Below the pieces are notes generated by a model, which was not told where the DNA came from, did not search any database, and saw only the letters and a list, made by a program, of their open reading frames with translations. Shown one piece after another: positions 3,216 through 41,862 of a stretch of DNA of 64,000 bases; positions within the stretch are counted from its first letter, which is position 1, and each line of letters begins with the position of its first letter. The DNA is from Patescibacteria group bacterium. Its GTDB lineage: Bacteria; Patescibacteriota; WWE3; UBA101185; UBA10185. The stretch spans positions 90,486 through 154,485 of the forward strand of contig BPJL01000001.1 of the NCBI GenBank assembly GCA_026004595.1. The letters are read 5' to 3'. A program made the translations under genes and the position numbers.

Positions 3216-4850
3216 GTGTTGCTAACGAAAAAACCTATGAAAACCGTCATATTCTGCCGAGTCAGCAGCAAAGAACAGGAAGAAACAGGTTACTCCCTAC
3301 CTGCTCAGGAGAAATTCTTGAGGGAGTATGCTGATAAACAGGGTTTGGAAGTCACTAAAGTATTTGCAATCTCCGAGTCAGCAGCAGGTAAAGTCCAGAG
3401 GAAAACCTTCAATGAGATGATCGAGTATGTCAGAAAGAAAAACATTTGCTCCATTGTCGTTGAGACAACAGACAGACTTACCAGAAACTTCTCCGATGTG
3501 CCAATTATCGACCAGTGGATTATGGAAAACGAAGAACACCAAATCCACTTGGCAAAAGAAGCCTGTGTGTTACACAATTCCTCCCGTTCCCACGAATGGT
3601 TTATGTGGCGGGTTAAGGTAGCCACAGCCGAGTATTATGTCCGTCTCCTTTCTGAGAATGTCAAAAAGGGTCAAAAAGAAAAACTGGCACAAGGCTGGAT
3701 ACCAACAAAACCGCCAATTGGATACAAAACTGTTGGTGAAACAGGACATAAAATTCATATTATTGACGAGGCAACCGCACCTTTGATCAGAAAGATGTTT
3801 GAGTATTATGCTTCAGGGCAGTTCTCAATCAAACGGCTTGTTATGACAATGTATAGAGAGGGGCTGCGCTCTCCACAAGGAAATAAGATCGTCAATAGCC
3901 GAATCCACTCCCTACTGCGTGATCCTTTTTATATTGGTAAAATAAGATGGAACGATGAAATCTATGACGGCAAACACGAACCTTTAATTAGTAAAGAAAT
4001 ATTTGATAAAGTTCAAGCATTACTTGTGAGTAAAACTACACCCAAATATAACAAGCACGACTACCTTTTCAAAGGCTTAATCCGCTGTGCAGGCTGTGAT
4101 GGTTTAATTACTTGGGAAGTTCATAAAGGACATCGCTATGGACACTGCAACCATTATCACAACTGTACCAAAACCAAATGGGTTAAAGAACCAGAGATTG
4201 AAGAACAACTTTTATCGGGCTTTGACAACCTGAAACTCAAAAACAGCCGTATTGTCGAATGGTTAAAGAAAGCGCTCAAAGAAAGTCACCAGGACGAGAT
4301 TACCTACCACAATAGTACTGTCGGCGAGCTTGAAGCCCGCTACGAGGCGATTCAGAAGCGAATGGACAAGTTATACGATGACAAGCTGGATGAAAAGATT
4401 ACACCCGACTTTTACAGCAGGAAATTCAAGCAGTATTCAGAAGAAAAGGATGAAATTGCCGAAAGCATCAAAAGGCACTCTACCGCCAGCACAGGCTACT
4501 TAAACTTGGGTATTAACCTTTATGAACTCTCCCAGCGAGCCAAAGAGATTTACCTTAAAGCCAAAGAAAAAGGTATGATGGATGAGCAAAAAAGCCTTAT
4601 CAGACTGGTATTTGCCAAGTTAATCCTGGATGAGGACAAATTAAGTTGGGAATACTCCAAAGCCTTTAAAATCCTCTCTGAAGCGGTTGACGAGACTAAT
4701 AGTTCGAAAGTGGTAAAAATTGACGAATTTGAAAAAGGAAAATTCGAACCTACGAAAAAGAGCGATGTTACGGGACAAAAGGACTCTTTGTTGCCCTCTC
4801 GTCCCATCTGGCTCCCCCGGGTGGACTCGAACCACCAACCTGCCGGTTAA
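3216..4850 (+). CDS. Large serine recombinase (serine integrase)
   Basis: N-terminal resolvase catalytic domain (VIFCRVSSKEQEETGYSLPAQE...). Recombinase domain. Zinc-ribbon (CAGCDGLITWEVHKGHRYGHCNHYHNC). Coiled-coil C-terminus. The 3-prime end overlaps tRNA-Asn. Confidence 0.85.
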   Translation: MLLTKKPMKTVIFCRVSSKEQEETGYSLPAQEKFLREYADKQGLEVTKVFAISESAAGKVQRKTFNEMIEYVRKKNICSIVVETTDRLTRNFSDVPIIDQWIMENEEHQIHLAKEACVLHNSSRSHEWFMWRVKVATAEYYVRLLSENVKKGQKEKLAQGWIPTKPPIGYKTVGETGHKIHIIDEATAPLIRKMFEYYASGQFSIKRLVMTMYREGLRSPQGNKIVNSRIHSLLRDPFYIGKIRWNDEIYDGKHEPLISKEIFDKVQALLVSKTTPKYNKHDYLFKGLIRCAGCDGLITWEVHKGHRYGHCNHYHNCTKTKWVKEPEIEEQLLSGFDNLKLKNSRIVEWLKKALKESHQDEITYHNSTVGELEARYEAIQKRMDKLYDDKLDEKITPDFYSRKFKQYSEEKDEIAESIKRHSTASTGYLNLGINLYELSQRAKEIYLKAKEKGMMDEQKSLIRLVFAKLILDEDKLSWEYSKAFKILSEAVDETNSSKVVKIDEFEKGKFEPTKKSDVTGQKDSLLPSRPIWLPRVDSNHQPAG

Positions 4851-4883
4851 CAGCCGGACGCTCTACCATTGAGCTACAGGGGA
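4809..4883 (-). tRNA. tRNA-Asn (anticodon GTT)
   Basis: Reverse complement folds as a 75-nt cloverleaf TCCCCTG TA GCTC AATGGTA GAGC G TCCGG CTGTTAA CCGGC ... GGTGGTTCGAGTCCACC CGGGGGA G CCA. Very similar to E. coli tRNA-Asn. CCA is encoded. Confidence 0.85.
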
Positions 4884-4902: not shown

Positions 4903-5820
4903 TCACATCGTTTTTGGCGGTTCAATGAGTGATTGTGGACTTTCTGGACTCGGTTCCGTTTTCTTCTTTATATCTCTCTTTATCTCCAAAAGCACCAAAA
5001 AGGCAATCAGCAAATTAACAAACATAAACCAGAACGGCACAACTGCAACTAAATTCAAAAAGCCTAGCACAACATCCATCAAAATCGGCAAAGTCATGGC
5101 ATGAAGACCAATTCTCAATGCTTTTTTAAAATCCACCGCAACCTTCATCAATCTGCTAATCCCGAAAATCAGCCCCCCAACTATTGCTATGTAAATGCCC
5201 CGAAACACAGCGTAGTACACAACCGCTCCCGAGAATGTAAACAAGATGATAGCTAGGGGAATCATCCAAGCCGCCAATACGCGAGCGTTTCTGGTTGCCG
5301 CCAAAATTTTAGACTTGTCCAAAGTAGTGTCGGGCATGTCCTTCAAGGGCAAGACATCCGGCTCTCCAGCTTTTCTTACAAGTATGTTTTTTTCATTAAC
5401 TAAAATCATTGTGTCATAGTTCTTAATATCTGCGACTGTTCCATTCTTATCTAAAACTACTAGGTTTTTCGGCATAGTTTCCTGTTCAGGACGTATGGTG
5501 TTTTCCATTTCGGTTTTCGGGAGTTCAAAAATCAATGGAAGGGGTTTATTAACTTCCCATTCTCCGCCTTTTATTGTGAAAACCAAATCTTCGGGGAAGG
5601 ATTTTTCAAGTTCATTCAACGTTTTATCTACATACTGCCTAGCCCTTGGCCCTTCTATCAGATAAGTTCCAGCAGAAGTTATGGTGGCCGCAATAAGTAC
5701 CAAAACCGCGTAATACTTGATTGAAAAATCAAATTTCGTTTTAAAAATCTCCAGATAATATTTCGGAGAAACTATGCTTTTATAGGCGATATAAAAGAAT
5801 GCCTTGATTTTTTTCACCAT
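4903..5820 (-). CDS. Hypothetical polytopic membrane protein (possibly DUF1189-like)
   Basis: 305 aa. One N-terminal TM segment, a soluble middle region, and 4-5 C-terminal TM segments. Confidence 0.35.
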   Translation of the reverse strand: MVKKIKAFFYIAYKSIVSPKYYLEIFKTKFDFSIKYYAVLVLIAATITSAGTYLIEGPRARQYVDKTLNELEKSFPEDLVFTIKGGEWEVNKPLPLIFELPKTEMENTIRPEQETMPKNLVVLDKNGTVADIKNYDTMILVNEKNILVRKAGEPDVLPLKDMPDTTLDKSKILAATRNARVLAAWMIPLAIILFTFSGAVVYYAVFRGIYIAIVGGLIFGISRLMKVAVDFKKALRIGLHAMTLPILMDVVLGFLNLVAVVPFWFMFVNLLIAFLVLLEIKRDIKKKTEPSPESPQSLIEPPKTM

Positions 5821-5917
5821 AGTATTTTAGCATAGGACAGTTTGAGTTTCTGTTTGATAGCCGATCTGCTGGCTCTAAGTTGACTCTCCAACATATATAG
5901 ACTATTATCTATCTGTT

Positions 5918-6196
5918 ATGTCGGAAATACCTTGTGTAAAATGCTTCAGCACCCTTGGTGTTGGCTCTCGCATGAGAATATTTGAATACCTAAGAAAAGC
6001 CGGGAAAGCCACTGTTGGCGAAATTGTTGATGTTGTAAAGCTGACCCAGCCGACGATTTCCTACCACCTAAAGGAAATGAAGACAGCGGGCTTGTTGGAA
6101 AATGAAAAATTTGGAAAAGAGGTCATGTATCGTATCAGAAAAAAGTGTCCTTCACGCAACGAGGATTGTATTTTAAGCAAACTAAAATTTTCCTAA
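5918..6196 (+). CDS. ArsR/SmtB-family transcriptional regulator, Cys-rich (candidate suf regulator)
   Basis: HTH LTQPTISYHLKEMKTAGLL. N-terminal CVKC and C-terminal CPSRNEDC cysteine pairs. Sits directly upstream of sufCBDSU. Confidence 0.65.
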   Translation: MSEIPCVKCFSTLGVGSRMRIFEYLRKAGKATVGEIVDVVKLTQPTISYHLKEMKTAGLLENEKFGKEVMYRIRKKCPSRNEDCILSKLKFS

Positions 6197-6963
6197 TGAA
6201 AAACTCTCTTGAAATAGAAAACTTAAGGGTCACGGTGGACGAGAAAGAGATTTTGACCGGTGTTGATTTAAAAATAAAACCAAAAGAAGTTCATGCGCTG
6301 ATGGGCAGAAATGGTTCGGGAAAAAGCACTCTTGCCCAAACATTAATGGGAAACCCGATCTATAAAGTTGTTGAGGGTTCCGCGAAAATTTATGGCAAGG
6401 AGATTTTGAACCTTGAGCCTACCGAACGAGCCCAATTAGGTCTTTTTTTGTCTTTTCAATACCCCAGCGAAATACCTGGGGTAAGAGTGTATAGCTACCT
6501 TCGTATGCTTTACAACAAATCGCACGAGCAAAAACTATCTCCGAAAATGTTCAAAGAACTTTTGCAAGAAAATATGAAACTTTTGGAAATGGATGATTCT
6601 TTTGCCGATCGTTTTTTGAACGAGGGTTTTTCTGGCGGAGAGAAAAAAAGAATGGAGATGCTTCAAATGATGATGTTGGAACCTAAAGTGGTAATTCTTG
6701 ATGAAGTGGACAGCGGCCTAGACATTGACGCTATAAAAATCGTTTCAAAAGCAGTAAATAATTTGATGGAGAGAAACGGCACATCTGTACTATTAATAAC
6801 CCACTACTCCCGCATACTAAACCACATCAAGCCCGATTTCGTTCACATCATGCTGGACGGAAAAATAATAAAGACGGGCGGAGAGGAAGTGGCGCAGAAT
6901 CTTGAAGAGTACGGCTATAGCCAAGCAGAGCTTGTTTCTCCCACAGTTAAAGATGAAGAATAG
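6196..6963 (+). CDS. sufC: Fe-S cluster assembly ATPase SufC
   Basis: Walker [13 protein letters not shown] signature [12 protein letters not shown]. The start is placed at the internal ATG at 6196 after the ArsR stop. Confidence 0.9.
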
Positions 6964-34241: not shown

Positions 34242-37200
34242 ATGGTCAAAAATCAGTCCATTAAAAAAAATTCGCTAGTTCCGACAATTTTGGTCAGCGG
34301 AGGCGCGGGATTTGTCGGTTCTCATCTTGTTGAGGCACTGCTTTCCAACGGTGCGAGAGTTCTGGTATTGGATAATTTTAACACTGGAAAAGAAATTCAC
34401 GTAAAGCATCTTCTCGCTAATCCGAACTTTGCTCTCTTTAATGTGGATATAAATGAAGGACTTCCGCCTGAGATAGAGAGTGTTGATTATGTTTTTCACA
34501 TGGCCGGGTTAGAAGATTATATGTACAGCGGCGAAGATCCAACTCTTGACACTTTGCTGACAAACTCGCTCGGTACTAAGAATCTTCTCGATCTAGTTAA
34601 ACGCTCGGAGGCGAAGTTTGTTCTTATATCTACAATAGATGTGTATCAGGGGAGAATGTCGCAGGACGAGCTGGGAAAATATTTTGGTCTCTCAAAGCCT
34701 GAAGAAAACAAGTTCAGCTTGATTGAAGCGAAAAGGTTTGCCGAGGCAGTAGTTTGGGAATACTACAAAAAATATGATTTGGATGTTCGGATTGTTCGTC
34801 TTCCAGAAGTATACGGACCAAGAATGAATCTTGACTCAAGTGGGGCACTAGGAATTTTTATAAAAGCATTGCTTGATGGAAGGAATATTGAGGTTAGCAA
34901 TGACGGTGTTGAAAAAGAGTACTATCTTTATGTATCGGATGCGGTGAGCGGAATTTTAAGATCAATGTTCAACCAAGGGACAAAGGGAGGTATTTATTCT
35001 CTGGTACCTGATTCTCCGATAACCCAACTGGAGATTGCCTATCTTCTAAAGAGCTTGGCTGATGGAAACATTGCTATTACCTTCAAGAGCTCGGGGTTCT
35101 CTCTTCCTTTCAGAGGTCCCGCACCTGATACATATAATCTTAAGGATTTGGGTTGGAAGCCACGTATTGGTTTGAAGGCCGGGATAATAGACACTCTTAA
35201 GTCTTTTGGCTACACGGTAAATAGGAATACATTCAAGCCCGCGAGATATGTTGAAGAAAAACTTGTGGCAAAAGGTGTGCAGACAACAACGGTTAAACCG
35301 TCTGAAAATACACCTCCTGCAACTGCGCCGGTAACCTCCATTTATCCTGCGGACATGGCCACTCTTTACGCAAGGAATTATGTAAATAAGGAGAGGAAAC
35401 CACGAAAGAAAATAGATTTGGGATTTCTTTTCAGGCATAAAGGTGTAAAAGAGAGCAAGGAAAAAAGGGCAAAGACTGTCTTCTCCAATTCTAAGTTTTA
35501 TATTGCAACCGCAATTTTTATTTCCGCCATTCTTGTGTTTCTCATAAACCCACTTTTTAATTTATATTCCAATGTTAGTTCAGGTGTTACCGCTTTAAAT
35601 AACATAGAAAAGGCAGGGTATAGTTTAAATTTGGAAGAGCTTTCCAAAAACTCGGCGCTTGCCTCTCGTAAATTTGAAACAGCAACCAAAAATCTCTCAG
35701 ATTTAAAATGGCTTTTTTCGCTTTCAGGTAAATCTCCGGAGTACATAAGCTATTTTAGAATGTTAAACTCTCTAAAGAATTTTTCCGAATCGGTTGGCTA
35801 CTTAGCAAAATCGGCAGCTCCCCTTGAGGGAATGTGGGAAATACTTAGACCGGATACTCAGGATGTTCTTACCAAAGATATAATTGACAACGCAAAATTT
35901 GAAATAGGACAGGCTCAAAAACTTCTTTACCTAGCTGAGGCAGATTTTGGCGGGGTTGATAAAGTGCACATTCCCGAAAAATACAGAAAACATGCTGACA
36001 ACTATGAAAAATATATTTTAATTCTTCAACAAAATTTGAGTCTTACAACAAAAATCATAAGTGATGTAGCCAATGTTTTAGGTGTTGAGAAGGAAACGAC
36101 CTATATAATATGGTTTCAAAACTCAAACGAACTGCGTCCGACCGGAGGCTTTATCGGTTCTTATGGCTTGTTAACCTTTGATAAAGGAAAAATAAAAGAT
36201 CTAAAGATAGATGATATTTATAATCCTGACGGACAGATAAAATTAAGAGATATAAAAGTAGATGCCCCCGAAGTCATTTCCAGATATTTGCAGGAGGATA
36301 GATTGTTTTTAAGAAATTCCAATTGGGATCCAGATTTTCCAACAGCGGCGGGAGTCTTTGGCAATCTTTTTTACAGGATAGACGGCCAGGGTGTAGATGG
36401 TTACATAGCCGTGGACCTAAAGTTTGTTGAAGGGATACTACGTGCTACAGGACCGGTGTATCTTGCGGCATACAACGAGGAAATAAATACTGATAATCTT
36501 TACGAGAGAACGCAGTTCCACAGCGATTTTAATTACACCGAAGGATCCAACCAGAAAAAGTCATTTTTGACAGTTTTAGGTAGCAAACTTTTGGATAAGG
36601 TATTTTCTCTTCCAAAAGATAAAATACCAGATCTTCTTAACGAAATACAAAAGTCTTTGGACGAAAAGCACCTTCTTGTTTATCTTTCAAACGGAGCAAT
36701 AAACGAAGTTTTGAAGGAGAAAAATTGGAATGGACAGGTGGTTCCTGTTGAGGGGGATTATTTATATGTTGTTAACTCCAATCTTGGAGGAACAAAAGCT
36801 AATTATTTTGTTAAGAATTATATTGATTACGAAATAAGTTCCATGACAAGAGACGGGGTGTTGAGAGCTGTGCTTAAGCTGACCTATACCCATACCGGAG
36901 ATTCCATGGCTTGGCCTGGGGGGCCCTACAAAGATCATATAAGGGTGTTAGTCCAAAAAGGCGCCAAACTCACTGGAGCGGAATACATAGGGACCGATGG
37001 TTTATCAGAGAATGTGATGGAGAAAATATCTTTATCGCAATCAAATGGCTACGACGTGATGTCCTATGATTTGGTCCTGAACCCAAAGGAGACAGCCACT
37101 CTCATTATAAAGTACGATCTTGCCGAGAAGCTGAATATAACCAAGGATCGCGCTTCCTATTCATTATATGTTCAGAAACAGCCGGGGACAGACGCAGATC

Positions 37201-37337
37201 CTTTCAACTTTACCTTTAACGCTCCATTTGGCATGCAAATAACTAAGGCGAGCAAAGGACTGGACATATTGGATAATAAAATAGTGTCTTTATCCGAACT
37301 TAGAAATGATAAGAATTACTTTATAGAGTTGCGCTGA
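34242..37337 (+). CDS. Fusion protein: NAD-dependent sugar epimerase/dehydratase (SDR) + TM segment + DUF4012 domain
   Basis: N-terminal Rossmann motif VSGGAGFVGSHLVEAL and extended-SDR features (~330 aa). Then a TM helix (IATAIFISAILVFLINPLF). A ~650-aa C-terminal domain carries the DUF4012-type motif ELRPTGGFIGSYGLLTF. Confidence 0.6.
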   Translation: MVKNQSIKKNSLVPTILVSGGAGFVGSHLVEALLSNGARVLVLDNFNTGKEIHVKHLLANPNFALFNVDINEGLPPEIESVDYVFHMAGLEDYMYSGEDPTLDTLLTNSLGTKNLLDLVKRSEAKFVLISTIDVYQGRMSQDELGKYFGLSKPEENKFSLIEAKRFAEAVVWEYYKKYDLDVRIVRLPEVYGPRMNLDSSGALGIFIKALLDGRNIEVSNDGVEKEYYLYVSDAVSGILRSMFNQGTKGGIYSLVPDSPITQLEIAYLLKSLADGNIAITFKSSGFSLPFRGPAPDTYNLKDLGWKPRIGLKAGIIDTLKSFGYTVNRNTFKPARYVEEKLVAKGVQTTTVKPSENTPPATAPVTSIYPADMATLYARNYVNKERKPRKKIDLGFLFRHKGVKESKEKRAKTVFSNSKFYIATAIFISAILVFLINPLFNLYSNVSSGVTALNNIEKAGYSLNLEELSKNSALASRKFETATKNLSDLKWLFSLSGKSPEYISYFRMLNSLKNFSESVGYLAKSAAPLEGMWEILRPDTQDVLTKDIIDNAKFEIGQAQKLLYLAEADFGGVDKVHIPEKYRKHADNYEKYILILQQNLSLTTKIISDVANVLGVEKETTYIIWFQNSNELRPTGGFIGSYGLLTFDKGKIKDLKIDDIYNPDGQIKLRDIKVDAPEVISRYLQEDRLFLRNSNWDPDFPTAAGVFGNLFYRIDGQGVDGYIAVDLKFVEGILRATGPVYLAAYNEEINTDNLYERTQFHSDFNYTEGSNQKKSFLTVLGSKLLDKVFSLPKDKIPDLLNEIQKSLDEKHLLVYLSNGAINEVLKEKNWNGQVVPVEGDYLYVVNSNLGGTKANYFVKNYIDYEISSMTRDGVLRAVLKLTYTHTGDSMAWPGGPYKDHIRVLVQKGAKLTGAEYIGTDGLSENVMEKISLSQSNGYDVMSYDLVLNPKETATLIIKYDLAEKLNITKDRASYSLYVQKQPGTDADPFNFTFNAPFGMQITKASKGLDILDNKIVSLSELRNDKNYFIELR

Positions 37338-37351
37338 TATAATAATAACAA

Positions 37352-39049
37352 ATGCCTTTAGCAGACATGCCCCAATCTCATAAACAGCACGCTGTCCCAC
37401 AGAATGTTATGAGTGTGGAATTTAAGCTTATCGGTGATCTCACAATGAGACAATTCGCGTACGTTTTCATTGCCGGGGTTCTTGCCTACCTTTCGTATGT
37501 ATTTTTTGTGGGTATTTTCAGATGGCCTTTGGTTTTTCTTATTGCATTTGGCGGAATCGGTTTTGCTTTTATTCCTGTACAGGAAAGGGGAATGGACGAG
37601 TGGATTATTAATTTTTTTAGGGCGATGTATTCTCCGACCCAGCGTATTTGGAGAAAGCAGCCTACGATACCAACCGCCTTTAGTTATGATAATCTCGCTG
37701 TTGTAAGACAAGAGCTTATAACACTTGCGCCTACCTCCAGTCGTAGAAAGCTTGAGGAATATCTTAAATATCAGGCCGGTGGTGAGGAAGTAGACCCGTT
37801 GGATATACCAGAAAGGGAGTATGCTCAAAAAGTTAGGGATGCTTTCCCTGGTGCCAGGAAGAAAAGCGAGGCAACTTCTACCGCGTTTTCAAGAAGTTCT
37901 TTCGGTCCCGCAATCGGTGTGCAGCCTACAGCCGTAACAACAATAGAAGGAGAAGCCATTCAGGAAGAAGAAGTTGTTACGCCGGTTTCTGTTGAAGTTA
38001 GTGCAGGTGAAGAGGTCGGTGTTGCAGCCAAGATTCCACAAGCCGAGGAACCAACTGTTCAAAAAGCGGAAGTTTCGGTTCAAACAGGTATTCAAAGAAG
38101 TAAGGACGCCGGTCTTTTTCATTTATTCAAGGCGAAAGAAGCTCAGAAGGCTAGGGAAGAGGCGCGAGCCGCCAAATTGGAAGATGGTGCCCCCCGTCTT
38201 TCTGCCCCATCTTCTAAGGCGTCGTCTATACCTCTTAAGCCGCTAACACCCGATATGCACTCTGGGCGAAGGTTTGTAAATCTACTGCCTTCAGAAGGCG
38301 AACTTATCCTTCCTATTAGAGGAGAGAGGGTGCTTAGAACTTCAGAAGAAATTTCTGTTGAAGAGACAATAAATGAAAAGGCAAGAAAGCTGCAGGAGTT
38401 GCTTAGGAGGATAAAGGAGGAAGAGGGGATTAAATCTGCCAAAGTTGTTGTAGCCCCAGTTTCGGTTGCCCAAAAGGAAGAACAGCGAGCTCAGGAGGTT
38501 CACGATGAGGCCAAAGATGTTGTTGATAAGCTTAAGATTCAGAGCGAAGAAATTAACGAAGAGATTAGAAGGCTTAAGAGAAATATTGAGTCAACCCACA
38601 CGCTCGGTTCCGCGTCCGAAACTCAAACAAGACTGTTGCAGGAGCTTGAGACCAAGAAACAGGCTGTTGAGGAAAGCTACCGTGTGCTTAGCCAAGGGAT
38701 CCAGAGTTTGAAATCAGAACCGAGAGAGAAAGTGGGAGCTGCTTCGGATATGATAAGAGACACATACCCAACAGAAAAAATTAGTCCTAATACTCTCCAT
38801 GGCGTGGTTAAAGACGCCAATGGAAAAGTACTGACTAATGTATTGTTAATAGTAAAGAATGAAGAAGATGAGCCGGTGAGAGCGCTAAAGACCGACAGCT
38901 TAGGAAGATTTGAGCTTCTGTCCGCACTGAACAATGGGAAATATACCATTGAAGTTAAGCCTTCAGATGAGCAAAAATTGTCGTTTGAAAAAATTTCTGT
39001 AGAATTAAAAGGTGATGTGGTTCCTCCTTTTGTAATATTGGGCAAATAG
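37352..39049 (+). CDS. PrgI-family (VirB3-like) T4SS membrane protein with long coiled-coil/low-complexity extension and C-terminal CarboxypepD_reg-like beta-sandwich domain
   Basis: N-terminus EFKLIGDLTMRQFAYVFIAGVLAYLSYVFFVG plus a second TM matches the PrgI family. Residues ~150-480 are Ala/Glu/Lys-rich with heptad-like stretches. The C-terminus GVVKDANGKVLTNVLLIVKNEEDEPVRALKTDSLGRFELLSALNNGKYTIEV is an Ig-like regulatory fold. Confidence 0.55.
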   Translation: MPLADMPQSHKQHAVPQNVMSVEFKLIGDLTMRQFAYVFIAGVLAYLSYVFFVGIFRWPLVFLIAFGGIGFAFIPVQERGMDEWIINFFRAMYSPTQRIWRKQPTIPTAFSYDNLAVVRQELITLAPTSSRRKLEEYLKYQAGGEEVDPLDIPEREYAQKVRDAFPGARKKSEATSTAFSRSSFGPAIGVQPTAVTTIEGEAIQEEEVVTPVSVEVSAGEEVGVAAKIPQAEEPTVQKAEVSVQTGIQRSKDAGLFHLFKAKEAQKAREEARAAKLEDGAPRLSAPSSKASSIPLKPLTPDMHSGRRFVNLLPSEGELILPIRGERVLRTSEEISVEETINEKARKLQELLRRIKEEEGIKSAKVVVAPVSVAQKEEQRAQEVHDEAKDVVDKLKIQSEEINEEIRRLKRNIESTHTLGSASETQTRLLQELETKKQAVEESYRVLSQGIQSLKSEPREKVGAASDMIRDTYPTEKISPNTLHGVVKDANGKVLTNVLLIVKNEEDEPVRALKTDSLGRFELLSALNNGKYTIEVKPSDEQKLSFEKISVELKGDVVPPFVILGK

Positions 39050-39050
39050 T

Positions 39051-39752
39051 ATGACAAACCAAAACATACCGGCAACTCAAGATCATCTCGATATTATGGA
39101 TATAAGAGATAACTTTGTTATTCTCAAGAATGGAGGTGTATGTGCGGTTCTACAGACTACGGCGGTCAATTTTGACCTTCTTTCGGAGATGGAGCAGGAT
39201 GCAATCATTGCGGCATTTTCTATGTTATTGAATTCAATAACATTTCCTATACAAGTTGTTATCAGATCAAGAAGGTTGGATATTTCTAAATATTTGGAAA
39301 AAGTATATAGAGTAGAAAGCAAACTGGCTGATCCTTTATTGAAACATCAGGCCTCCGCGTATAGAAAATTTGTTCAGGATGTGATAAAGAAGAACGATGT
39401 TCTGGACAAGAGATTTTATGTTGTTATTCCTACAAGTGTTGCTGAAAAAGCGCAACCGGGTTCAGGGCCGTTCGACTGGCTTATGAGACTGACGGGACAG
39501 CACAACAAGAGGGTTTCGTTTAATATTGAAAAGGCTCTCAACGACGGAAAGATAGAATTATCACCTAAAATTGATCACGTAATAAAAGAATTCAATAGAC
39601 TGGGAATCAAGACAAAGCAACTTACTACACAAGACTTAGTGGAGCTTTATTTTGATATTTATAATCCGACCTCTATCCATGGTCAAAGGATTAGGACGGG
39701 GGTTGATGATTATACGACGGCGATAGTAAACCCCGCAATCATTGAGGAGTAA
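39051..39752 (+). CDS. T4SS VirB4-family protein, N-terminal domain encoded as a separate polypeptide (Tn916 Orf16-like N-region)
   Basis: DIMDIRDNFVILKNGGVCAVLQTTAVNFDLLSEMEQDAIIAAFSMLLNS matches the first conserved block of Orf16/TcpF-type VirB4. In Orf16 this block precedes the block found at the start of the next ORF. The gene ends at TAA one nt before the next ATG, which has its own SD (GAGGAG). Confidence 0.5.
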   Translation: MTNQNIPATQDHLDIMDIRDNFVILKNGGVCAVLQTTAVNFDLLSEMEQDAIIAAFSMLLNSITFPIQVVIRSRRLDISKYLEKVYRVESKLADPLLKHQASAYRKFVQDVIKKNDVLDKRFYVVIPTSVAEKAQPGSGPFDWLMRLTGQHNKRVSFNIEKALNDGKIELSPKIDHVIKEFNRLGIKTKQLTTQDLVELYFDIYNPTSIHGQRIRTGVDDYTTAIVNPAIIEE

Positions 39753-39753
39753 T

Positions 39754-41862
39754 ATGGCGTTAAATCTTTTTACAATGTTTTCAAATCAACCGAAACCTAA
39801 GAAGCAGGATAAGCAACCGAAGCCCGGAGAAAAGACACCGGCGGAGGTGCTGGCGGAAGGAATGCTGAATGTCAGGGACATTATCGCACCCTCCGCTATA
39901 GAAATTGACTTTAACCATATAAGAATCGGAAATGTGTATTTCAGGACGCTGTTCGTTTCAGGATATCCAAGATTTGTCGGCGCAAACTGGTTGTCTCCGA
40001 TTATCAATTTTGAACATACACTGGATGTTTCTATGTTTTATTATCCTGTGAAATCTAAGGTAATTCTTGATGATTTAAGGAGAAAAATCACCGAGCTTGA
40101 AGCGACAACCATGACCAATATTGAGAAGGGAAAGATTGTTGATCCTGTTGTAGCCGCGGCGTTGGAAGATGCCAAAGCTCTTCAAGAACAACTGGTTAAG
40201 GGAGTTGAAAAATATTTTCAATTCTCTTTTTACATAACCATATCCGCCGAAACTGAGGAAGAGCTTGAGTCCATTTCTTCCAAGCTGGAAAGTACGCTTG
40301 GCGCCCTGCTTCTTATATCCAAGGTAGCTTCCCTTCAGATGGAAGAGGCTTTTCAGTCCTCAATACCTACGGGTATGGATAAACTGTTGGTTACGAGAAA
40401 TATGGACACGACAAGTTTGGCCACAACATTTCCGTTTACCTCGTCTGATCTGACTATGGAGGAGGGAATAATGTATGGGATCAACAGGCACAATGGTTCA
40501 TTGGTCATATTCGATAGGTTCTCTCTAGAAAATGCAAACTCGGTTGTTTTCGCAAAATCAGGCTCAGGAAAATCATATTTTGTTAAGCTTGAGGCACTCA
40601 GGCTTTTGGTATTTGGCGCAGAGGTGATGATTATAGATCCGGAGGAGGAATACAAAACTTTGTGCGAGGCTGTAGGGGGTAATTATATCGATTTTTCTGC
40701 CAACTCACCGCATAAGATAAATCCTTTTGATCTTTCGGGCGTTGCAGTGGAGGGAGAAAACGAGCTAGGACAGAAGCTCATTGGCCTTATAACACTGTTG
40801 AAGCTTATGCTTGGTGGGTTGACAGCAGCCGAAGAAGCCATTCTCGATCGCGCCCTCATTGAAACGTACAGAATTAAAGGGATTACCACCGACCCTGATA
40901 CCCAATCCGGCATAGAGCCTCCTGTCATGGAGGATTTATACAAGGTGTTGTTGGGGGCTTCTGAACCTGAAGCAAAGGGAATGGCCGAAAGACTTGAGAG
41001 ATTTATCAAGGGCTCTATGACGGGAATCTTTGATTCCCAATCCAATATTAACTTGGACAGCAAGATGACGGTTTTCTCGACGAAACACTTAGAGGAGGCT
41101 CTAAGGCCTATCGCCTTTTATTTAATACTTGATTTTGTTTGGACTAGAATAAGAAAGGATTTGAGAAAGAGGATATTAATTGTTGAAGAGGCTTGGTATT
41201 TGATGCAAAACGAAGATAGTGCAAGATTTATTTACGGAATTGCGAAACGAGCTAGAAAATATTATCTAGGTCTTACAACGATATCGCAGGATGTTGACGA
41301 TTTCTTGTCGTCTGAATACGGAAAGGCGATTGTTACGAACTCATCAATACAAATATTGTTGAAACAACACCCGGCGGGCATAGATAAAGTTGCCGAAACC
41401 TTCTATCTCTCCGAAGGAGAAAAGAGGCTGTTGTTGGCGGCTGCTGTAGGAGAAGGGCTGTTTTTTGCAGGTTCGAATCATGTGGCGATAAAGATAATGG
41501 CGTCAGAGGCTGAACATAAGCTTATAACCACGAACCCCGAAGAGTTGCTTAGGTTGCGTGAGCAGGGATTGATAAAAACGCCGGGGAAAGACAAACCCAA
41601 ACCACCTGAAATTCCATCTACACAAAAACCATCTCCTTTGGTAGAAACCCCGTCTGTTTATAGTACACCCACAATTACGGATACAACCGCATCACTGAAA
41701 GAGCCGGAGAAAAAAGAGGACGAGAAGGGCTTTTCCGAAGTTCAATCGAAAGAACCCACAAGTGAAGATATACTCAGATCTGTCGAGTCAATGTCAAAAG
41801 GGCCGGGAACCATAGATCTTAACCAAGAAAGTTCACTCCAGCAACCCGCTCCCGCAGAATAA
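39754..41862 (+). CDS. T4SS ATPase VirB4/TraC/TrbE family (CagE_TrbE_VirB)
   Basis: N-region IAPSAIEIDFNHIRIGNVYFRTLFVSGYPRFVGANWLSPII. Walker A FAKSGSGKS. Walker B ILIVEEAW. C-terminal Pro/Thr-rich tail. The ATG at 39754 is preferred over the TTG at 39742. Confidence 0.8.
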   Translation: MALNLFTMFSNQPKPKKQDKQPKPGEKTPAEVLAEGMLNVRDIIAPSAIEIDFNHIRIGNVYFRTLFVSGYPRFVGANWLSPIINFEHTLDVSMFYYPVKSKVILDDLRRKITELEATTMTNIEKGKIVDPVVAAALEDAKALQEQLVKGVEKYFQFSFYITISAETEEELESISSKLESTLGALLLISKVASLQMEEAFQSSIPTGMDKLLVTRNMDTTSLATTFPFTSSDLTMEEGIMYGINRHNGSLVIFDRFSLENANSVVFAKSGSGKSYFVKLEALRLLVFGAEVMIIDPEEEYKTLCEAVGGNYIDFSANSPHKINPFDLSGVAVEGENELGQKLIGLITLLKLMLGGLTAAEEAILDRALIETYRIKGITTDPDTQSGIEPPVMEDLYKVLLGASEPEAKGMAERLERFIKGSMTGIFDSQSNINLDSKMTVFSTKHLEEALRPIAFYLILDFVWTRIRKDLRKRILIVEEAWYLMQNEDSARFIYGIAKRARKYYLGLTTISQDVDDFLSSEYGKAIVTNSSIQILLKQHPAGIDKVAETFYLSEGEKRLLLAAAVGEGLFFAGSNHVAIKIMASEAEHKLITTNPEELLRLREQGLIKTPGKDKPKPPEIPSTQKPSPLVETPSVYSTPTITDTTASLKEPEKKEDEKGFSEVQSKEPTSEDILRSVESMSKGPGTIDLNQESSLQQPAPAE

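Follow-up and report, generated by a model that had tools for sequence, protein, structure and literature searches.

The window analysed here, a stretch of 64,000 nucleotides (nt) from contig BPJL01000001.1 (positions 90,486 to 154,485; assembly GCA_026004595.1) of a Patescibacteria group bacterium belonging to WWE3, carries two adjacent open reading frames (ORFs) on its forward strand that resemble the two parts of a single VirB4, the ATPase motor of type IV secretion systems (T4SS). The first, ORF1 (39051..39752, +), runs from an ATG at 39051 to a TAA at 39750-39752 and encodes a TrsD/TraD-like protein of 233 amino acids (aa) that ends in NPAIIEE. The second, ORF2 (39754..41862, +), encodes a VirB4-type ATPase of 702 aa when counted from the ATG at 39754, which we used in place of the upstream TTG at 39742 chosen in the mechanical ORF list. 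At the junction (39750..39756, +; attGAGGAGTAAtATGgcg) stop codon, a 1-nt spacer and start codon follow one another as TAA-T-ATG, with ORF2 read in the +1 frame relative to ORF1. Just before the stop, the two final Glu codons of ORF1 make up a Shine-Dalgarno (SD)-like GAGGAG (39744..39749, +). An earlier reading of this DNA made from its letters and translations (the sequence-only reading) had proposed a VirB4 encoded as two consecutive ORFs in different frames joined by TAA-T-ATG, with which the coordinates and the junction sequence agree, and both peptide blocks quoted in its favour were found again, in residues 17-62 of ORF1 and from residue 44 on in ORF2. The proposed Shine-Dalgarno motif is present as well, but its reported distance of 7 nt upstream is only approximate, as the 3' end of GAGGAG lies 4 nt before the ATG of ORF2.

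ORF2 belongs to the VirB4 family both by a profile score above the curated cutoff and by its Walker A motif. It matches the NCBIfam model of the CD1110-family VirB4 (NF045971) over positions 180-735 of 752 with 383.8 bits (E 1.6e-114; cutoff 325), and the Pfam family P-loop_TraG with 105.7 bits (E 2.9e-30; cutoff 25.8). The matches to full-length models begin late, at about position 180 for CD1110, 238 for TIGR00929 and 282 for VirB4_plasma, and this chain lacks the initial ~180-240 positions of a single-chain VirB4, which would make the N-terminal domain complete. What remains of that domain in ORF2 is its second part, which is followed by the P-loop ATPase domain and by about 100 disordered residues at the C-terminal end. 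Its Walker A motif GSGKS lies at 40561..40575 (+; residues 270-274). For comparison, a scan of one genome per species yielded 70 loci; the locus counts given below refer to the 68 loci, the window included, in which both genes were readable, and the 67 other genomes are nearly all labelled WWE3 or other Patescibacteria. Walker A reads GSGKS or GAGKS in 67 of these 68 loci.

The N-terminal part of VirB4 is recognisable in ORF1. Among the NCBIfam models, VirB4_plasma is matched at positions 108-233 of 894 (E 2.6e-10), the TrsD/TraD model NF041427 with 35 bits (E 1.2e-8) and VirB4_CagE (TIGR00929) at positions 19-200 of 792 (E 0.0025). The first two matches recur in 25 of 25 aligned orthologues, with E values down to 8e-10 for TrsD; the CD1110 model is matched weakly by only four of the 25. 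The local Pfam library gave no significant match to ORF1 (TraC_F_IV, E 0.046), and precomputed annotation places its homologues in PF26593, one source naming them 'TraC-like domain-containing'. Compared by sequence with PDB chains, the ORF1 profile returned nothing meaningful, VirB4 being recovered by the fold search only: a Foldseek run of the ORF1 AlphaFold model against PDB listed R388 TrwK/VirB4 for all of its top 14 matches (E 1e-4 to 3e-3, probability 0.98-1.0). Database homologues of ORF1 number 676; the 120 best are stand-alone proteins of 229-235 aa with 67-92% identity, labelled mostly as candidate division WWE3 or Patescibacteria. As is typical of TrsD, ORF1 is small and homologous to the VirB4 N-terminus, and its gene immediately precedes virB4, an adjacency seen in 68/68 loci. 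By its profile matches, ORF1 is a TrsD/TraD homologue that falls below the NCBI membership threshold. The sequence-only reading had taken the 233-aa product for a homologue of the VirB4 N-terminus, which the profile matches, the fold search and the alignment described next bear out; its more specific assignment to the Tn916-Orf16/TcpF type was not confirmed, since ORF1 has no TcpF match and ORF2 only a weak one (E 1.8e-5).

An exhaustive profile search over 1.84 billion cluster representatives brought up a fused relative of the pair, P0191, a VirB4 of 787 aa labelled 'Patescibacteria group bacterium' whose cluster holds 787-aa members on four further contigs. P0191 covers positions 3-735 of the 752 of the CD1110 model. 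Its residues 10-204 align with residues 9-210 of ORF1 (42% identity, E 4e-50) and its residues 213-768 with residues 44-599 of ORF2 (63% identity). The two ORFs thereby tile P0191 collinearly and without overlap, leaving a gap of eight residues in P0191, and they are therefore complementary halves rather than a duplicate next to a complete protein. According to this alignment, the part absent from ORF2 is supplied by ORF1. Among the 150 best cluster representatives of the ORF1 domain, P0191 is the only one in which the ATPase is also present. Measured against single-chain VirB4 proteins (R388 TrwK, PDB 8RTB/7O42; the CD1110 family; P0191), the pair is collinear, the fold of ORF1 matches TrwK, and Walker A and the ATPase-domain profiles are intact in ORF2; it differs in that the chain is broken within the N-terminal domain, conserved peptides are added at the break and Walker B is altered (see below).

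These added peptides extend both products beyond what they share with P0191. On ORF1 it is the C-terminal tail, residues 211-233 (39681..39749, +; GQRIRTGVDDYTTAIVNPAIIEE), which is highly conserved in the split proteins, with ten invariant columns (G211, Q212, R215, D220, Y221, T223, A224, V226, P228, E233), and has no counterpart in P0191, where the alignment stops at ORF1 residue 210. A Pontibacillus homologue retains the tail in part, up to DDYTT. ORF2 begins with a conserved M-x-L-N-[LI]-F, continues through a variable basic linker into a conserved KTPAxxLAEGMxNVRD and only then enters the region shared with P0191, so that its extra conserved segments are residues 1-9 and 27-43.

The break lies at the same place in all 68 evaluable loci, one of them in a closed genome (CP006914, RAAC2_WWE3_1), while the details of the junction vary. 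ORF1 ends in TAA in 54 loci, in TAG in 9 and in TGA in 5; the spacer ranges from -1 to 65 nt, is 9 nt or shorter in 60/68 and most often 1 nt (21/68); ORF2 stands in relative frame 0, +1 or +2 in 19, 30 and 19 loci, and starts with ATG in every one. GAG encodes the penultimate Glu of ORF1 in 52 of 62 loci, whereas it makes up 331 of 896 Glu codons elsewhere in ORF1 (37%; Fisher p = 5e-13, a value that overstates independence because the 68 loci are related by phylogeny). This bias fits selection for an SD-like GAGGA serving ORF2. Translational coupling of ORF1 and ORF2 is plausible from these sequences, because the spacers are short and selection appears to have kept an SD-like GAGGA in the two codons that precede the ORF1 stop. 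The sequence-only reading had argued for an evolved split rather than a random frameshift and had suggested looking for the same split in related genomes: it was found in all 67 evaluable others, and together with the collinear fused P0191 and the hundreds of homologues that stand alone at about 233 aa it upholds that argument.

The best-placed rival to a split VirB4, though an improbable one in our view, holds that ORF1 encodes an independent accessory T4SS protein whose mere likeness to the VirB4 N-terminus could stem from, say, an old duplication, and that ORF2 is a self-sufficient VirB4. It can draw on the survey of Patescibacteria T4SS by Quinonero-Coronel et al. (2025; PMC12102498), in which TrsD is described as remotely homologous to the VirB4 N-terminus and yet treated as a separate component without an assigned function, and in which the TrsD homologues of Gracilibacteria are not adjacent to virB4. 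Many homologues furthermore bear long disordered tails unrelated to VirB4. An accessory role sits badly with the start of ORF2 at about position 180-280 of every full-length VirB4 profile, with the absence of any ORF1-like region from ORF2, and with a BLAST search of ORF1 against P0191 that matched residues 10-204 only; tiling without overlap is what complementary, not redundant, proteins would give.

Several observations besides the shared ancestry behind the GAG statistic nevertheless weigh against two reassembling VirB4 parts. ORF1 stays far below the curated cutoff of the TrsD/TraD model (NF041427; 35 vs 200 bits). Its AlphaFold model, with a mean pLDDT of 61, has moderate quality and gives low TM-scores against TrwK (0.33-0.41). 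In the Walker B region of ORF2, ILIVEEAW (41173..41196, +; residues 474-481), a Glu replaces the usual Asp; EEAW is found in 62 of the 64 loci with a matched motif and DEAW in P0191 and the Pontibacillus VirB4, and ATPase competence of ORF2 with EEAW in place of DEAW is only assumed here. Finally, many TrsD-like proteins of other Patescibacteria have 300-700 aa, with the TrsD-like domain followed by a Q/P/S/T-rich low-complexity tail and no ATPase. In many of the representatives P0123-P0269 (e.g. P0241, P0223 and P0185), from outside WWE3, these Gln/Pro/Ser/Thr-rich tails measure 100-470 aa, which suggests roles of TrsD-like proteins beyond completing VirB4.

The other two rivals concern the junction itself, and the statistics of the 68 loci led us to reject both on comparative grounds. 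Programmed recoding, by a +1 frameshift or by readthrough of the stop codon, would yield a full-length VirB4 with the SD-like motif as stimulator, as in prfB; the GAGGAG directly before the stop and the +1 frame of ORF2 in the window are what it would call for. No slippery codon precedes the stop, however, and ORF2 starts with ATG in every locus. All three relative frames occur, spacers reach 65 nt and extra in-frame stops are sometimes present, therefore no single recoding mechanism could be conserved, and we regard this explanation as very improbable. Least credible of all is the view that virB4 is a single-chain gene interrupted by an indel from sequencing or assembly, or by a frameshift that recently made it a pseudogene: two ORFs 1 nt apart in different frames are just how a 1-nt indel would look in one sequence, but the same break recurs in 67/67 other evaluable genomes with varied stops, spacers and frames, both halves are highly conserved (ORF1 at the identities given above), and the break is flanked by conserved terminal extensions that the fused P0191 lacks.

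We therefore consider it very likely that the window holds an origin-proximal chromosomal T4SS core cluster of a WWE3 bacterium, composed of prgI, a trsD-like gene and virB4, in which the VirB4 motor is split into two polypeptides. ORF1 corresponds to the initial portion of the N-terminal domain of VirB4 and ORF2 to the rest of this domain and the P-loop ATPase, and the two products would join non-covalently into a VirB4-like protomer. By analogy to the N-terminal domain of VirB4 in the R388 structure, contact with the PrgI/VirB3-like protein would be made by a membrane-proximal surface of ORF1. The conserved termini at the break (ORF1 211-233; ORF2 1-9 and 27-43) may serve as docking or reassembly elements. 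The prgI-like gene, the trsD-like gene and virB4 are probably co-translated with coupled initiation, because the spacers between them measure 1 nt and ORF1 contains the SD motif of ORF2 in its final codons. The split itself would go back to an ancient gene fission, or to a split state that was retained, common to some Firmicute MPF-FATA systems.

A more far-reaching proposal, which we offer tentatively and rate as rather less than likely, is that TrsD-type proteins in general are no accessory factors but the detached membrane-proximal subdomain of VirB4, produced by a single ancient fission common to the Patescibacteria T4SS and part of the Firmicute MPF-FATA systems, with the peptides at the break as the interface for reassembly. 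If this were so, detachment would permit a regulated or sub-stoichiometric docking of the ATPase on PrgI/VirB3, long disordered tails could be appended to the detached piece in other Patescibacteria, and TrsD, which the literature lists without a function, would gain one. For gene callers and annotators, the practical consequence is that two-ORF virB4 loci should not be flagged as pseudogenes.

Pairs of this type are known. In the staphylococcal plasmids pGO1 and pSK41 (pGO1 subclass of MPF-FATA), TrsD/TraD is likewise a small cytoplasmic homologue of the VirB4 N-terminus encoded upstream of a shortened VirB4, TrsE/TraE, and the pair follows a VirB3-like gene as it does here; there it belongs to a plasmid tra operon, whereas the cluster described here sits in a housekeeping region of the chromosome by dnaN, and neither a relaxase nor a coupling protein was found near it. 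For Patescibacteria, the survey mentioned above reports VirB4 in 2,417 of 3,035 genomes, as a clade nested in MPF-FATA, and 2,272 TrsD homologues, 1,664 of them adjoining virB4; the clusters frequently lie near dnaN, rnpA and rpmH and lack relaxases, and the TrsD homologue of S. epibionticum is essential (PMC12102498). Wang et al. (2023; PMC10633639) found the T4SS of Southlakia epibionticum to be essential for epibiotic growth. With PrgI/VirB3, a TrsD homologue and VirB4 near dnaN, rnpA and rpmH and with no relaxase found, the window is an instance of this described Patescibacteria T4SS. It departs from the description in that a Pfam scan of roughly three dozen of the larger window ORFs brought up neither VirB6 nor a VirB2 pilin array. 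Relaxase and VirD4 coupling protein, which would mark a conjugative MPF-FATA system if present with the cluster, were equally absent from these ORFs, in agreement with PMC12102498. By analogy to Southlakia, the T4SS probably serves an epibiotic lifestyle rather than conjugation.

The two-polypeptide VirB4 is thus the known TrsD-VirB4 pair, already described and ordinary for the phylum, and the split brings no new type of system to light. The sequence-only reading was right in proposing an evolved two-polypeptide arrangement, but it missed that the arrangement had been described before, with the small protein as the TrsD/TraD-like T4SS component (NF041427; PMC12102498). What the present analysis adds is that the adjacent VirB4 lacks exactly the region equivalent to TrsD, that a fused Patescibacteria counterpart exists, that the breakpoint is shared with a Firmicute plasmid, and the junction statistics. 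PMC12102498 does not spell out the absence of the TrsD region from the adjacent VirB4, and no mention of WWE3 was found in its main text; the main text of Guglielmini et al. (2014; PMC4027160) has no TrsD, and papers on pELF and pNP40 have no bearing on the split. Reading TrsD as the N-terminal piece of VirB4 gives it a concrete structural meaning and bears on models of the Patescibacteria T4SS that is essential for epibiotic growth.

Outside WWE3, a tblastn search of plasmids found homologues in Bacillus, Clostridium, other Firmicutes and haloarchaea. On the megaplasmid of Pontibacillus sp. ALD_SL1, the gene of a 274-aa 'hypothetical protein' (WP_207531476) overlaps the start of that of a 621-aa CD1110-family VirB4 (WP_207531477). 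The breakpoint is the same as in the window: residues 3-223 of ORF1 align with 35-257 of the 274 aa (33% identity) and residues 31-603 of ORF2 with 22-611 of the 621 aa (39%). In a conjugative cluster of the Bacillus thuringiensis plasmid pBMB68, PrgI is followed by an ORF of 227 aa and a DUF87 ATPase of 632 aa, the pair WP_044798571/WP_044798573. Both plasmids share with the window the order of a small ORF followed by a VirB4 ATPase, preceded in pBMB68 by a gene annotated as PrgI family; the Pontibacillus neighbour of the small ORF is annotated as hypothetical only. They differ from the window in being plasmid-borne and in having small ORFs annotated as hypothetical, Pontibacillus also in the Walker B motif given above, and pBMB68 in carrying a relaxase and VirD4, as a conjugative element does. 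Judging from sequence comparison, the split is old and common to part of the MPF-FATA class, because these Firmicute plasmids have it too.

Among the haloarchaeal matches, plasmid NZ_CP126164 of Haloarcula pelagica encodes a hypothetical protein of 556 aa (4977-6647) whose N-terminal region resembles ORF1 (23% identity, E 2e-6), and the next ORF encodes a hypothetical protein of 761 aa. The TrsD-like/VirB4 arrangement may, from this similarity, occur in archaeal plasmids too.

Upstream of ORF1 and on the same strand lies the gene of a PrgI-family (VirB3-like) membrane protein of 565 aa (37352..39049, +), whose stop stands 1 nt before the ATG of ORF1; this TAG-T-ATG junction has the same geometry as that between ORF1 and ORF2. 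The PrgI domain (PF12666), at residues 15-99, scores 40 bits against a cutoff of 27 and identifies the protein as PrgI/VirB3-like. With a long, charged low-complexity middle and a CarboxypepD_reg domain at residues 481-550, the protein is several times as long as a typical PrgI. A PrgI-like gene is immediately upstream in 67/68 loci and dnaN is downstream in 52/68. In one locus, from a low-coverage metagenome-assembled genome (JBAZBO010000012, 4423-6681), a Tyr codon stands in place of the stop of the PrgI/VirB3-like gene, which continues in frame through the TrsD-like one to give 752 aa; this fusion of a VirB3-like protein to the VirB4 N-terminus may be real or a base error. No VirB3-VirB4 fusions were reported in Patescibacteria by the 2025 survey (PMC12102498).

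The gene before prgI, ending 14 nt upstream of it, encodes a 1031-aa fusion (34242..37337, +) of an NAD-dependent epimerase (Pfam Epimerase, E 1.6e-32) with DUF4012 (E 7.6e-27), so that the order across 34242-41862 is epimerase-DUF4012, PrgI-like gene, ORF1, ORF2. The fusion often accompanies the cluster, standing before the PrgI-like gene in 41/68 loci, and is no recognised T4SS part; a link to the T4SS cluster or to the cell envelope is possible. On the other side, ORF2 is convergent with dnaN, jag, yidC, yidD, rnpA and rpmH. Elsewhere in the window, an ORF for a large serine recombinase with Resolvase and Recombinase domains (3216-4850) overlaps with its end a tRNA-Asn on the opposite strand (4809-4883), an overlap at which an integrated element may have its boundary.

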